Source: a plasmid
Reading direction: 5' to 3' (one strand)
Sequence record: NZ_CP024444.1
Length of the DNA: 64,000 nucleotides
The translations under genes were made by a program, and so were the position numbers. Below the pieces are notes generated by a model. That model had not been told where the DNA came from, searched no databases, and saw nothing but the letters and a program-made list of their open reading frames with translations. Shown in pieces: positions 21,017 to 61,708 of this stretch (positions are counted from its first letter, which is position 1; every line of letters begins with the position of its first letter).

Positions 21017-21025
21017 TTTAGCGAA
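21017..21025 (+). promoter_or_regulatory. island motif copy (TTTAGCGAA) upstream of the integrase-like gene
   Basis: 4 nt upstream of ATG 21030. Confidence 0.5.
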
Positions 21026-21029
21026 TCAC

Positions 21030-22685
21030 ATGAAAGAATTTATTACTAGGCAATATCACTCAAATCTGCCTAAAGAGAGTAGTGACTTAATTAAACATGC
21101 TGGGTCAGCATCCCAAAATGCCTACCTAGACCGTTGGGGTCAATTCTATGAGAATTTTGACCCACAAAAAACTGCCGATACCAATCTAGCTGATACTATC
21201 AGTACCATACAGACAAAACGTCAAAATGGTGAAATTAAGTGGTCAACGGTACGTCAATACAAAGCCGCCATTATGTTTACCCTGTCATTGGCATACCTGT
21301 ACCGAGAAAACCCGTCCTTGTATCAACAGGTGGTCGCCTATAAAAAACTGGTCGATATCGAACGCTTTCACCCGTTCTTTAACGCGGTCACCACGCCAGC
21401 ACTCGAAGATAATTATGAAGAGCTCAACAATTGGAAATCAAGCGATCCGCTGATAACTAAGCAGCTGGATAACCTGGCGCATGAGAAAAACAATACCAGC
21501 TCTTCAAAAGCCAAAAGCTTTCCTGACGAGCTGTACAACATCTTGATGAAAGACACCTCCCCAAACATGCATTGGGTACGAGTTTTTACCTACCTTAACT
21601 GCCGTTTGGGGCTGCGCCCGAATGAGTGGTATGACTGTGAGCTGGTGAGCCATGATTATTATGAAGTGACTAAAAGTCAGCAGGGCAATCCCTTTTTTAA
21701 TGGGCGATTTCAAGATGCCAATAACCAACCAGTTATCCATTTTTCCGAACCAAACGACCAAAATTCGGCTTTTACTTATGGTTTTCTCGAAAAACTAGGG
21801 GTTTTTACGTTTAATGAAATCAAAGATAAATCTGCACCCGTGCTTGTGGTTAAAAATTCCAAGCTATCACATGGTCGTGCCTGCGGTCCCCTACGATTTA
21901 TAGCACTCACCGGATTTAATGCAACCGAAGTGGATTTATTAAAAACCATGATGGGCTATTTCGACAGACAAAACGATGAATTAAATACCGATGGCACACG
22001 GCTTGCGTTTGTTAAGCATGTGATTAACCCAATGCAAGGTAAACTGCATTACTTTTGGCATAGTAATGATGATGCCGAAATAGCGATCAATGATGTGTTT
22101 GAGCAAAAGCATGAAGACTGGACCAACGAAAAAAATCGGTATCTTCGTCAAGGCAAAGAATTTAATCGTACACCGCCCGTTAAAAATTACCCGACTTTGT
22201 ACTCAACACGCCATCAAGCCATTGCCACAGCCAAAGCAACGGGGTGTTCGCCAATTGAGATTGCCGCCTTATTTGGTCATGCATCTGTCATAACCGCAGA
22301 TAGGCATTACGGTAAGCGTATACATGGTTGGGGTAAACAACAAGTTCAGCCTGTGAAAGAAGGCGTGATGAATGTATTAGCTCGCATGACTGACGCGGTA
22401 TTTAATCAGATTGTGAGTGAAAGTGCGCCTGGCGAATTGGTGCAAGCCGTTGCCGAGCAATTAGAACAAGACGGGGTGATAAAAGCACCTGATAGTTTTG
22501 AAGATGCGGTTAAACAGATTATGACCCAGTATGACAACCAGCCGGATGTGTTTAATGAGCGATTAAGCCATGTAGTCAAAACGCACATTCAACCGATTGC
22601 CGCTAAACAGCGTGATGCCAAAACATCGGTTCAACGTGCGCCTGTACTCAATAACAATTATGATAATGGCTTTAGTCCAAACTAG
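21030..22685 (+). CDS. large tyrosine-recombinase-like protein (C-terminal catalytic domain), unknown N-terminal 380 aa
   Basis: C-terminal boxes ..YSTRHQAIATA.. and ..LFGHASVITADRHYGKR.. resemble the box II RHxxR..GH..Y region of XerC/D-type integrases. The island motif TTTAGCGAA lies 4 nt upstream of the ATG. Confidence 0.5.
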   Translation: MKEFITRQYHSNLPKESSDLIKHAGSASQNAYLDRWGQFYENFDPQKTADTNLADTISTIQTKRQNGEIKWSTVRQYKAAIMFTLSLAYLYRENPSLYQQVVAYKKLVDIERFHPFFNAVTTPALEDNYEELNNWKSSDPLITKQLDNLAHEKNNTSSSKAKSFPDELYNILMKDTSPNMHWVRVFTYLNCRLGLRPNEWYDCELVSHDYYEVTKSQQGNPFFNGRFQDANNQPVIHFSEPNDQNSAFTYGFLEKLGVFTFNEIKDKSAPVLVVKNSKLSHGRACGPLRFIALTGFNATEVDLLKTMMGYFDRQNDELNTDGTRLAFVKHVINPMQGKLHYFWHSNDDAEIAINDVFEQKHEDWTNEKNRYLRQGKEFNRTPPVKNYPTLYSTRHQAIATAKATGCSPIEIAALFGHASVITADRHYGKRIHGWGKQQVQPVKEGVMNVLARMTDAVFNQIVSESAPGELVQAVAEQLEQDGVIKAPDSFEDAVKQIMTQYDNQPDVFNERLSHVVKTHIQPIAAKQRDAKTSVQRAPVLNNNYDNGFSPN

Positions 22686-23407
22686 CCAATATTAATCAAA
22701 ACGTCAGTACCATTGGCAAACGTCACCGGGGTATGGGTGTAGTGACTTGAGATACGCGTGCGCAGCAAGCTGTGCTCGATGTGGCCGTCGGCAAAGGTAA
22801 AGCGATTGGTTTGAGCCATCCCTGATAATTTGATACTATGCTCTTGCAGGGTACAGACAACTGCTAACACCTGTTGCCAAGCTTCATACGACAATTGGCG
22901 AAAATAATCTTTATTGGTATCGCTTGTGGTGTGGGTGCGTACTTTCATTTCTGACCAACCGATATAGCTGCCGAAATCATCAGCTTGCCAACCCAATGCT
23001 TCAATCAACAGCACTAGGTTGTAAGGCGCGTACCCAACTTCAATACATACTTCATTGATAGCAATGCCTTTTTCGATTAGCTTTGGGCGTAAATGATTAA
23101 CCAAAGACATAAATTCGATATAAGTTAACTCTTTGTAGGGTGCCATTAGGCTTTCAATACGCAACGCAAGTTCACTGGCGAGCTGTTCAGGCTTGCTATT
23201 GGTGGCGTCAATCAAACGTTTAACGTTGTTTGGGGTATAACCTTCGCCAAATACCAAATCTCTTGCGTCAAAGGGTTTGCCTGCTTTGTTATTATTAAGT
23301 CGTTTTAAAAATTCTTCGGGTGGGGTAATTAACCATTCTTTCATTCTTAGACTTCCACAACTTGCATATAACGGGTTATTTGTAAAACTTCTTCTAAATA
23401 TTGACAA
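22682..23407 (-). CDS. hypothetical protein, paralogue of 23480-24211
   Basis: Shares the pattern KG[IL]..x..C..G..YNL..(20)..GW with the divergently transcribed neighbour; possible DNA-binding domain. Confidence 0.4.
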   Translation of the reverse strand: MSIFRRSFTNNPLYASCGSLRMKEWLITPPEEFLKRLNNNKAGKPFDARDLVFGEGYTPNNVKRLIDATNSKPEQLASELALRIESLMAPYKELTYIEFMSLVNHLRPKLIEKGIAINEVCIEVGYAPYNLVLLIEALGWQADDFGSYIGWSEMKVRTHTTSDTNKDYFRQLSYEAWQQVLAVVCTLQEHSIKLSGMAQTNRFTFADGHIEHSLLRTRISSHYTHTPVTFANGTDVLINIG

Positions 23408-23479
23408 TATAATACAGCGAAAATATACTTACAATTACTTTAATAGTATCCGTAACTGGTAGCGCAACTTAGGTAACAA

Positions 23480-24211
23480 ATGCCAATGGATTTTGATGAT
23501 AGTGAAAAATTAATAGACAAGGACATTGATATTCCTTTGCATGTGCAACAGGTTTTTCAAAATCATCCTGATATTTTAAATGATCTAAACGTTTTTAACG
23601 TAAACGAGTGCCATTTTAAAGCAAGCTTTGACCCTGTCAATTTAAAAAACATTATTCGGTTCTTTCGTTATTATTATAATGTGACCGCGATTGAGCTATA
23701 TAAGAATTTAGCATTAAAGCGTCGCAACTCAAATAAAACGATTTCTCGGCAGACATTTTATACCTGGATTTCTGAAACCACGATAAGCGTCAACCCGACC
23801 GAAGAGTATTGGGAACAGATATTAGATTACTGTCAGCCTTATTTCAATGAAAAAGGGTTGGATGCCAAAACATTTTGTACTCGTATAGGTTGTTCCAATT
23901 ACAACCTTGCGGTGATAGTAAAAAACAGCCAATTAAGTTTAGAGCAACTTGAGATACTGCAGGGGTGGAATACACCTCACCGCATGAAGCGTTATTTTTT
24001 AGAGAAGGACTCTTATCGCTATCGTTCAATACCCTACAAGACGTGGCGACGGTTCTTAGATGTGCTAAATGAGGCAATACAACAAAAACAAGAAATGTTG
24101 AAATATTACACAGTTGATAAAGAGATTAAGCATGGCAATGATGTCAGACATCAAATATTTGCACCAAAAACGATTAGTTGCAGGCCAGCAAATACCAATA
24201 GAAAAGCGTGA
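23480..24211 (+). CDS. hypothetical protein, paralogue of 22682-23407
   Basis: 243 aa; carries ..KGLDAKTFCTRIGCSNYNLAVIV..GW.. mirroring ..KGIAINEVCIEVGYAPYNLVLLIEALGW.. in the neighbour. Confidence 0.4.
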   Translation: MPMDFDDSEKLIDKDIDIPLHVQQVFQNHPDILNDLNVFNVNECHFKASFDPVNLKNIIRFFRYYYNVTAIELYKNLALKRRNSNKTISRQTFYTWISETTISVNPTEEYWEQILDYCQPYFNEKGLDAKTFCTRIGCSNYNLAVIVKNSQLSLEQLEILQGWNTPHRMKRYFLEKDSYRYRSIPYKTWRRFLDVLNEAIQQKQEMLKYYTVDKEIKHGNDVRHQIFAPKTISCRPANTNRKA

Positions 24212-60792: not shown

Positions 60793-60871
60793 ATCTTTGA
60801 AGGTGTTTTTCAAAAGCGGTAGATGGAAAGCGAGAAGTTTGTTAAATTTGAAGAAGAAGTAGGACATCATT

Positions 60872-61093
60872 ATGGAAGAAATTAGCATCTCAATGAAACT
60901 CTTTATAATAGGTAATGCGGTATTTTTCGTATTACTTTTTGGCAGCAGAGTATACCGCTTTTTTGAACTTCGCCGTCGTGAAAAGCAGTGGGATCGTGAA
61001 GAATTAATTGATAAATTTGGTGAAAATTATCAAAATAATCCTGAATACCTTGAATATAAAGCCTTGATGAAAAAGGTAGGGATTAAGGTTTAG
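60872..61093 (+). CDS. hypothetical small single-TM protein
   Basis: 73 aa, N-terminal TM, charged C-terminus. Confidence 0.3.
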   Translation: MEEISISMKLFIIGNAVFFVLLFGSRVYRFFELRRREKQWDREELIDKFGENYQNNPEYLEYKALMKKVGIKV

Positions 61094-61142
61094 TAAGTTT
61101 AAGCGACAAACAATGACGTAAATTAATTGATAAGGAATCAAA

Positions 61143-61670
61143 ATGTCTTTTTTAAACCAGGTTAAAGGTTTATTTGTGAATGGCCAAAAGGTAGCTGATA
61201 TTGAAGAAGATTCAGTGATTGAAATTAGACCAAAAACGGTAAATGCCTCAGTTGGTAATGGATGTGTTAATCATGGTGTTCATAACAGCCCTAATAGTAA
61301 TGTAGTAAATAGCTTCATTGGGAACCAACGTATTCAAGCTAATTCTGTAGGTGCGGTTATTGGTGACAATGCAAATATCTGTGTTAATCAGTCAAAAGTT
61401 ATTGTCGATGGCTTTGAATACACCCTATCTGATTTTACTAATGATGAAGTGATAAAGATTGAAATTTATGGTGATATCGATGAGCTTAAAACAAATAGTG
61501 GTGATGCAGTCGTTAATGGTAATGTAAATAGCGTTAAAACACAAAGCGGCGATATTGAGATTATTGGTGAAGTTAACGGTGACATAAAAACTATGTCAGG
61601 TGATGTAAAAGTTAAGGGCAATATTCATGGTAAGGTTTCTACGATGTCAGGTGACGTTAAACATAGTTAG
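61143..61670 (+). CDS. bactofilin-like beta-helical repeat protein
   Basis: Repeating ..SGDxxVxGNVxxVKTxSGDIEIIGEVNGDIKTMSGDVKVKGNIHGKV.. pattern typical of bactofilin beta-helix rungs. Confidence 0.4.
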   Translation: MSFLNQVKGLFVNGQKVADIEEDSVIEIRPKTVNASVGNGCVNHGVHNSPNSNVVNSFIGNQRIQANSVGAVIGDNANICVNQSKVIVDGFEYTLSDFTNDEVIKIEIYGDIDELKTNSGDAVVNGNVNSVKTQSGDIEIIGEVNGDIKTMSGDVKVKGNIHGKVSTMSGDVKHS

Positions 61671-61697
61671 TTTCCGAACTATTTATTTTTAACTAAC

Positions 61698-61708
61698 TTT
61701 TAGCAAAT
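61698..61708 (+). promoter_or_regulatory. island motif variant (TTTTAGCAAAT)
   Basis: Degenerate copy upstream of ATG 61724. Confidence 0.3.

Follow-up and report, generated by a model that had tools for sequence, protein, structure and literature searches.

We describe a 19-bp sequence box, aTTAATTtTTAGCGAATaA, which stands upstream of 12 predicted transcription units in the window, i.e. the whole stretch of 64,000 nucleotides that we analysed from plasmid sequence record NZ_CP024444.1. The block concerned, at 21-62 kb, is the backbone of a conjugative plasmid of Moraxellaceae with a type IVB (Dot/Icm-like, IncI-like) transfer system, and is flanked by insertion sequences (IS). The box is real, strongly non-random and specific to the plasmid backbone, and is best read as the mark of a plasmid-wide promoter/operator regulon of unusual architecture. 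According to this reading, to which we give a probability of about 50% on the basis of sequence comparison, the boxes would be promoters without a -35 element, in which the -10 and start-site region forms the recognition site of a plasmid-encoded factor.

The core of the box, the 8-mer TTAGCGAA, occurs 12 times in the window against 2.26 copies expected (maximum among 100 shuffled sequences: 8), and the 10-mer TTTTAGCGAA occurs seven times against 0.18 expected, a number reached in 0 of 100 shuffles. The block at 21-62 kb contains ten exact copies of the 8-mer and two copies with one mismatch (ATAGCGAA at 50291 and TTAGCAAA at 61700). All 12 sites fall between genes and share the strand of the gene that follows, while intergenic sequence accounts for 8.9% of the region from 21.0 to 62.3 kb. 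A first-pass annotation of the window had placed a shared motif upstream of a list of named genes, and each listed site was recovered in the sequence. It had also described a variable distance to the start codon, which measured from the end of the 8-mer is 4-18 nt at eleven sites and 161 nt at one, and an identical motif plus Shine-Dalgarno sequence before the genes at 32816 and 41150; TTAGCGAATAAGAGG is indeed common to both (at 32796 and 41130). Likewise as described, genes internal to operons (26303, 27408, 28496, 31936, 33739 and 44372) have a ribosome-binding site only, without the motif, and no copy precedes a gene in the first 20 kb, where the exact or one-mismatch copies at 3155 (minus strand), 7281 (plus strand) and 10102 (minus strand) all fall within open reading frames (ORFs). 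The extent of the motif had to be revised: the reported core is genuine, but the true element is the wider 19-bp box, with a hairpin 5′ of it.

In order of position, box 1 (tttaaggtTTAGCGAAtca; 21010-21028, plus strand, as all others unless stated; 8-mer at 21018) lies 4 nt before the gene at 21030, which encodes a 551-aa tyrosine-recombinase-like protein. Box 2 (25933-25951; 8-mer at 25941) lies 6 nt before 25955 and heads the IcmT-like/dotI/dotH/dotG unit at 25955-30721, and box 3 (30777-30795; 8-mer at 30785) lies 12 nt before 30805, a gene in dotF position that is followed by a 202-aa gene. Box 4 (32788-32806; 8-mer at 32796), 12 nt before 32816, is preceded by a terminator-like hairpin at 32768-32788. 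On the minus strand, box 5 (39275-39293; 8-mer at 39278) lies 18 nt before the 529-aa gene at 37670-39259. Box 6 (39866-39884; 8-mer at 39874) is the distant one, 161 nt before the nuclease-domain gene at 40043. Box 7 (41122-41140; 8-mer at 41130), 12 nt before 41150, heads the dotO-like/dotL unit at 41150-47317, and box 8 (50283-50301; the ATAGCGAA variant at 50291), 18 nt before 50317, heads a unit with a DsbC/TrbB-like gene. Box 9 (54699-54717; 8-mer at 54707) lies 12 nt before the GTG start of an M23 peptidase gene at 54727, box 10 (58164-58182; 8-mer at 58172) 15 nt before 58195, and box 11 (59269-59287; 8-mer at 59277) 18 nt before 59303, preceded by a terminator-like hairpin at 59253-59270. 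The degenerate box 12 (TTAGCAAA; 61692-61710; 8-mer at 61700) lies 16 nt before 61724.

The same backbone is found in the Moraxella osloensis plasmid pMOXF1 (CP040258.1, 248 kb), of which 71.9-111.9 kb are 99% identical to 21-62.5 kb of the window. pMOXF1 carries 28 exact copies of TTAGCGAA, 20 of them at gene 5′ ends and in gene orientation; 12 of these make up the block of the window, and the others head a UvrD-type helicase operon, a ParM/StbA operon and several large genes without known function. When ORFs of 100 aa or more, amounting to 84% of the plasmid, were crudely masked, 18 of the 28 copies remained outside the mask (binomial P = 1.5e-8). None precedes a resistance, metal, restriction-modification (RM) or IS gene. 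About ten further copies on pMOXF1 stand before backbone genes outside the block. The box does unite the recombinase-like gene with the secretion genes, as both are box-headed, but it is backbone-wide and not specific to secretion. When the box together with its ribosome-binding site was used as a 35-nt BLAST query against the 72,556 plasmids of PLSDB, multiple matches were obtained in pMOXF1 only. Specificity was assessed on plasmid sequences, namely the window, pMOXF1, PLSDB and the relatives traced below. We found no paper on regulation in this plasmid family or on the motif, and the literature matches listed for the 8-mer look incidental, e.g. a primer.

Relatives of the backbone were identified as DotH homologues of 47-60% identity and traced to their contigs. 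In lineages whose DotH is 53-59% identical, TAGC-N-AA is kept at orthologous intergenic sites, i.e. before the dotF-position gene, a 135-146-aa gene, the dotO-like gene and the M23 peptidase gene. Loci L016 and L019, which have a Psychrobacter-type layout, carry TAGCGAA with a TATA-like hexamer 0-2 nt before it at the positions of 30785 and 32796 of the window. Loci L024 and L026 (and L025) contain eleven unique sites, including sites before the dotO-like, dotL, DsbC-like and M23 peptidase genes; in L024/L026, 10 of 11 unique sites read nAnAAT-NN-TAGC-N-A, i.e. a good -10 hexamer at a fixed spacing of 2 nt. Locus L148 has TAGCAAA before the orthologues of 32816 and 54727. Thus, orthologous copies exist for box 3 (L016, L019, L024 and L026), box 4 (the same four and L148), box 7 (upstream of the dotO-like gene in L024/L026) and box 9 (TAGCAAA in L026 and L148). 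The box is absent from the M. bovis plasmid, Moraxella sp. ZJ142, L021-L023, L027 and the Acinetobacter plasmid pC54_001, which have ordinary promoters or tight operons at these places. When TAGCNA was searched for without bias immediately 5′ of genes, the base following TAGC differed between lineages: in pMOXF1 (n = 32) it was G in 22 cases, A in 5, T in 3 and C in 2, while in L024/L026 (n = 11) it was C in 6, T in 2, A in 2 and G in 1 (Fisher P = 0.001 for G and 0.002 for C). A plasmid factor co-evolving with the box would account for such a lineage-specific base better than one of the host.

Acinetobacter megaplasmids were considered as box carriers and rejected, as the box is absent and their lone intergenic TAGCGAA sits in a palindromic hairpin. 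At approximately 15405-15430 of locus L020 (Acinetobacter pittii pC54_001), upstream of a DotB-like ATPase gene, the perfect palindrome GTTAGCGAAccttaaGTTCGCTAAC holds the 8-mer within a hairpin; the match to the box is probably coincidental.

A sequence logo of 20 pMOXF1 sites defines the asymmetric box, with conserved positions from -8 to +10 relative to TTAGCGAA and no information upstream of position -9, indicating the lack of a -35 element. In the window and pMOXF1, a -10-like hexamer, TAATTT, lies 1 nt before TAGC, which would place the predicted start site within the box, and the invariant part of the box is TAGCGAA, located downstream of a T run. Neither a -35 hexamer 16-18 nt upstream nor a TGn extended -10 was found at the boxes. 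The sigma-70 RNA polymerase of the host alone should consequently use them poorly, which suggests dependence on an additional factor. A scan for consensus sigma-70 promoters showed no enrichment, and box sites were essentially absent from its matches. Sigma-54, FliA, extracytoplasmic function (ECF) sigma factor, PmrA and ops readings were rejected for mismatches in spacing or consensus and for the lack of anything conserved at the -24 or -35 place; the comparison with these consensus sequences was made by eye.

Nearly every site is preceded by a stem-loop that ends a few nt before the box (gap to TTAGCGAA of -2 to 13 nt in the window) and whose sequence is unrelated between sites. The 40 nt 5′ of the box had a mean folding z-score of -2.3, while upstream regions taken from the same plasmid as controls (n = 120) averaged -0.36 (Mann-Whitney P = 2e-7). 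For example, a hairpin at 41103-41120 (plus strand) abuts the 5′ edge of box 7 and is itself preceded by a second, terminator-like hairpin at 41086-41102. Given that several of these hairpins pass a terminator scan, the downstream genes would need a promoter of their own.

Together, these data suggest the following organization. Each unit would begin with a variable hairpin that probably terminates the unit before it or stabilises the 3′ end of that unit, followed by a -10-like hexamer (TAATTT in the plasmid of the window, TAnAAT in the sister lineage), by TAGC(G)AA 1-2 nt further on at the expected transcription start, and by the Shine-Dalgarno sequence and start codon approximately 10-25 nt beyond. 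A DNA-binding factor encoded by the plasmid would recognise the asymmetric TTAA...TAGCGAA and switch all backbone units together, on or off. These units comprise the recombinase-like gene and the secretion genes, to which pMOXF1 adds the helicase, ParM-like and other genes. As to the sign of regulation, we lean to activation, or else to a repressor acting on weak constitutive promoters. A plasmid-encoded factor is suggested by the conserved start-site sequence and its lineage-specific base, and a promoter core rather than an RNA motif by the fixed spacing of the -10 hexamer in the sister lineage, by TAATTT in the window and by the insulating hairpins. The earlier proposal of a shared promoter or operator read by an element-encoded factor is thereby retained as the best reading, for which the -10-like hexamer, the orthologous conservation and the lineage-specific base argue; that transcription starts at the box and that a factor binds there is what we infer from the sequence.

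Several observations weigh against this reading. The -10-like hexamer is weak in pMOXF1 and the window, with T as last base in 13 of 20 sites. The contrast between G and C after TAGC comes from few sites, and the position is not fixed in L024/L026. A scan for ATTAATTWTTAGCGAAY across the collection of genome contigs yielded, among the matches listed, scattered single chance-type matches in unrelated taxa. A factor site covering -10 to +3 is usual for a repressor but unusual for an activator. Furthermore, a perfect sigma-70 consensus promoter, TTGACA-16-TATAAT, is present at 39751-39778, approximately 95 nt upstream of the box at 39874, in the divergent region that separates the nuclease-domain gene from a minus-strand Y1 transposase gene (39350-39757) and that two minus-strand promoter-like sites overlap as well; this box thus lies inside a leader that the consensus promoter would already transcribe. 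Two units would have leaders of only about 9-11 nt without a Shine-Dalgarno sequence, and the short distance of 11 of the 12 boxes from the start codon has the tightness typical of a translation-linked RNA element.

The last three points would also suit an RNA leader, in which the stem-loop and a single-stranded AUUAAUUUUUAGCGAAUAA located 5′ of the ribosome-binding site act within longer mRNAs, be it as the site of a plasmid-encoded translational regulator, as an RNase E-type processing site (an AU-rich stretch next to a hairpin) or as a translation enhancer. The invariable sense orientation of the boxes, the hairpin immediately 5′ of the AU-rich stretch and the missing -35 element fit such a leader too. 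However, an RNA element would give no reason for the sister lineage to keep TAnAAT at a fixed spacing. Boxes moreover occur in divergent intergenic regions that have no co-directional gene upstream (21018 and 39874; 129743 of pMOXF1), where an upstream promoter would still be needed yet nothing is conserved. At the two sites located 161 and approximately 209 nt from the next gene (39874 of the window and 177072 of pMOXF1), no conserved leader fills the interval: the two share only TTTAGCGAATATTAAC, and the downstream genes are unrelated. No Rfam family matched the window at the gathering score, and no CsrA, FinO/ProQ or Hfq domain was found by Pfam scans of the window proteins. We therefore regard an RNA leader as unlikely, with a chance of the order of one throw of a die.

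Alternatively, the box might be the complete promoter of a dedicated transcription machinery, i.e. of a plasmid-encoded sigma-like specificity factor, which may consist of tandem XRE-type helix-turn-helix (HTH) domains, or of an unrecognised RNA polymerase, which may have an unfamiliar fold. The element is compact (approximately 19 bp) and asymmetric, extends across the presumed start and is not accompanied by a -35; hairpins insulate the individual short units, many large plasmid proteins belong to no detectable family, and the box base differs by lineage. In contrast, the AT-rich part of the box resembles an ordinary host -10 hexamer, the Pfam scans detected no sigma-70 region 2 or 4, T7-type polymerase (PF00940) or NusG domain in the window proteins or in nine large pMOXF1 proteins without known function, and a DFDGD-type catalytic motif was absent from all frames of pMOXF1 and the window. 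The same searches speak against the alternative sigma factor that the first-pass annotation had listed among its candidates. We consider dedicated machinery rather improbable; were it true, a conjugative plasmid would transcribe its whole backbone from hairpin-insulated promoters without -35 elements, in the style of a phage late regulon.

It is very doubtful that the box represents a common promoter form of M. osloensis with nothing plasmid-specific about it. No copy precedes any of the approximately 20 genes in the first 20 kb, which are typical cargo of M. osloensis plasmids (leuA, MocR-type regulators, a class A beta-lactamase gene, IS3/IS1/IS5), and none precedes the accessory genes of pMOXF1. 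The more than 30 other Moraxella plasmids in PLSDB gave no match to the extended box, and the variation of the base after TAGC between plasmid lineages is likewise difficult to reconcile with a host-wide feature.

We attach similarly little credence to the notion that the T-rich half of the box is merely the U-tract of intrinsic terminators and the remainder a product of incidental shared descent. The hairpins do abut this T-rich part, 3 of the 12 window sites pass the terminator scan with a T tail overlapping the box (32768-32788, 59253-59270 and 41086-41102), and hairpin z-scores are strongest after co-directional genes. At divergent sites, which have no gene end upstream, the hairpins persist but are weaker; AT-rich stems are frequent, and AA interrupts the T run. 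Boxes themselves are also found at places where no upstream gene ends. Terminator-like sites are not enriched overall (22 versus 17.6 expected; 19 versus 20.0), the invariant TAGCGAA lies downstream of the T run, and sister lineages retain TAGC-N-AA without the run. Finally, a recombination or transposition site formed by hairpin and box, either attC-like for the tyrosine-recombinase-like protein or resembling repetitive extragenic palindromic (REP) elements and their transposases (RAYT) for the Y1 transposase at 39350, can practically be discarded. Both genes do lie in the block, and attC sites as well as IS200/IS605 ends likewise pair a variable hairpin with a short conserved sequence. However, the gene order is shared with distant Dot/Icm-type plasmids and the units are thus not mobile cassettes, and the conserved sequence lies outside hairpins of unrelated sequence and has no inverse-core partner upstream. 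In REP elements it is the palindrome that is conserved, and either orientation occurs; the box copies, in contrast, are strictly co-oriented at gene 5′ ends. Moreover, more than 20 direct repeats would delete the backbone on recombining.

Returning to the reading as factor-dependent promoters, the best candidate for the box factor is a pair of divergently transcribed genes at 22682 and 23480. The first (22682-23344, minus strand) encodes 220 aa from the ATG at 23344, or 241 aa from a TTG at 23407, with two GY(S/T)PxNL repeats and a predicted XRE/Cro-type HTH fold; structure prediction used an alignment shallower than the best one, and the AlphaFold model had a predicted local distance difference test (pLDDT) score of 71. 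The second (23480-24211, plus strand; 243 aa) is a weak paralogue of the first. Overlapping divergent sigma-70-type promoters are located between them (23401-23434), as is a box-like TATAAT-AC-AGCGAA at 23408-23421 that faces 23480; the pair could form a switch. Among the window proteins, only the 22682 protein has homologues limited to box-bearing loci (L016, L019, L024 and L025); none was found in the box-less M. bovis plasmid or elsewhere in PLSDB. The divergent pair as such is also present in L016 and L025. An exhaustive HMMER search of 1.8 billion representative proteins detected six relatives of the 22682 protein, while a word-indexed search returned its own cluster only, an alignment scan of genome contigs returned none, and metagenomes yielded a single locus, of L024 type. 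The proposed candidacy of this pair is thus strengthened by the XRE-like HTH folds and by the restriction of the pair to box-bearing lineages; binding to the box is predicted, and a monomer with two HTH domains would fit the asymmetric bipartite site TTAA ... TAGCGAA. The other regulator put forward, the XRE-family gene at 49550-49969 (plus strand, with its own sigma-70-type promoter), is a weaker candidate because it and its neighbours are missing from the corresponding position, between dotL and the DsbC-like gene, in the box-bearing locus L026.

Like the CI/Cro genes of XRE/Cro/C1 switches, and comparable to RM controller (C) proteins, 22682 and 23480 are divergent with overlapping promoters. 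They differ in that the candidate has two HTH-like repeats per chain and belongs to an orphan family, and in that the site it would recognise is asymmetric and occurs at over 20 putative promoters instead of at its own gene alone.

The 551-aa protein encoded at 21030-22685 (plus strand), predicted to be the first box-controlled unit, had been called integrase-like. It has no Pfam or NCBIfam match and a weak match to a PHROG integrase family (E = 0.0012). Nevertheless, R196, K278, R394-H395, H417 and Y427 are invariant in nine homologues, in the contexts GLRPxEW...STRH...GH...HY plus a conserved K, a pattern like that of tyrosine-recombinase catalytic residues. This pattern and the weak PHROG match make the label tenable at motif level; the protein is recombinase-like and at most a putative integrase. 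In each of the nine relatives examined, Acinetobacter included, its gene adjoins the dotI operon. PLSDB typing classifies pMOXF1 as non-mobilizable, with no relaxase found; the protein could therefore be an atypical relaxase or a resolvase, or else an integrase.

We compared the box with known regulatory systems. The KorA/KorB/TrbA operators of IncP-1 plasmids and the network of the IncW plasmid R388 place a short motif, read by plasmid-encoded HTH regulators, at many backbone promoters and thereby tie replication, maintenance and transfer genes together; the repetition of one short motif at many backbone promoters is what the box shares with them. The KorA operator overlaps the -10 region, and KorA and KorB operators are palindromic and bound by dimers. 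Their half-site TTTAGC resembles TTTTAGCG of the plasmid box. Unlike the Kor palindromes (GTTTAGCTAAAC or TTTAGCSGCTAAA), however, the box is asymmetric, does not match its own reverse complement and is strictly oriented, and unlike Kor promoters the putative box promoters have no -35 and the box reaches over the start site. Pfam found neither KorA nor a ParB/KorB homologue in the 40 window proteins, and a ParB is encoded elsewhere on pMOXF1.

AcaCD of IncA/C plasmids and SetCD of SXT/R391 elements are element-encoded master activators of the FlhDC type, with boxes upstream of the -10, near -40. Here, too, many transfer and backbone operons lack a good -35 and a shared box would define the regulon of the element, but the plasmid box is conserved at about -13 to +6 and not near -40, and Pfam found no FlhC or FlhD domain in the window proteins. 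The late promoters of phage T4 (TATAAATA) are read by gp55, and an upstream conserved sequence (UCS) motif precedes every gene of the yeast linear killer plasmids. These are likewise compact elements at or near -10 that have no -35 and are repeated before each short unit; the systems to which they belong encode their own sigma factor or polymerase, however, whereas none was detected in the window proteins or the nine large pMOXF1 proteins. With the RfaH-dependent ops element (GGCGGTAGnnTG), the box has only TAGCG in common, and it occurs in 12 copies within approximately 41 kb instead of once per long operon; the window proteins contain no NusG/KOW domain according to Pfam. An integron attC or REP-like identity was rejected on the grounds set out above for hairpin and box. 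For a plasmid promoter, the fusion of a factor site with the -10 and the start site, together with the missing -35 and the hairpin upstream, would be uncommon.

The box thus offers a map of the transcription units and of the putative regulon of the backbone, linking recombinase-like, secretion and, on pMOXF1, helicase and ParM-like genes, and it points to the 22682/23480 HTH pair as candidate master switch. If the factor were confirmed, plasmid transfer could be switched experimentally, and the lineage-specific G/C/A position would offer a natural specificity swap.

The identity of the backbone is supported by Pfam/NCBIfam matches to DotI/IcmL (26303), DotH/IcmK (27408), DotG/IcmE (28496), a DotL-type coupling protein (TraG-D_C; 44372), a DsbC/TrbB-like protein (50952), an M23 peptidase (54727) and a TrbN-like/lytic-transglycosylase-like domain (59303). 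The Dot/Icm gene identities agree with synteny to the annotated Acinetobacter plasmid pC54_001, and the syntenic arrangement of DotI, DotH, DotG, a DotO-like ATPase and a DotL coupling protein places the block among the type IVB systems. Most other backbone proteins match no family, and the plasmid family is barely characterised. The block had been described as an island. The DotH protein occurs on many contigs, in which a Rep3 replication initiator gene and an AcrVA2-like gene lie just 5′ of the 551-aa gene; because Rep3 genes adjoin these other copies and the block is 99% identical to pMOXF1, it is a conjugative plasmid backbone and not a chromosomal island. MOB-suite types pMOXF1 as non-mobilizable despite its full Dot/Icm-like system. 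pMOXF1 carries the macrolide resistance genes msr(E)/mph(E), and the relatives include Acinetobacter megaplasmids, some of them annotated with IS26/ISCR1 elements.

Several further features were noted. In the accessory part of the window, the class A beta-lactamase gene lies at 16495-17457 (NCBIfam bla_class_A, CARB/RTG-like), and IS3, IS1 and IS5 transposase genes at 17595-20802 replace the Rep3/AcrVA2-like genes of other backbone copies. The IS200-like Y1 transposase gene at 39350-39757 (minus strand) is without a TnpB partner and occupies the same backbone position in L001, L002 and pMOXF1; it may be a fixed or domesticated copy rather than an active IS. A TnpB (IS605 OrfB/Cas12f-like) gene at 47652-48758 is missing at the corresponding place of pMOXF1, where a single 274-aa gene is annotated, so that the ORFs at 47181-47660 and 48827-49402 look like halves of one gene split by the TnpB insertion. 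The MORN-repeat protein gene at 36177-37592 marks a variable spot, being absent or replaced in the near-identical L001 and L002 and of other lengths elsewhere. The strongest terminator-like hairpin of the block (33252-33287; 15 pairs and a T run) follows the gene at 32816-33223, and the four genes beyond it (33323-37592), including a conserved HNH-endonuclease-like gene, have no box. The box is likewise absent from 203-246 kb of pMOXF1 (loci L015 and L014), an array of approximately 40 small minus-strand genes separated by spacers of approximately 300 bp; with two ssb genes and several pentapeptide-repeat proteins, this array resembles a conjugative leading region.

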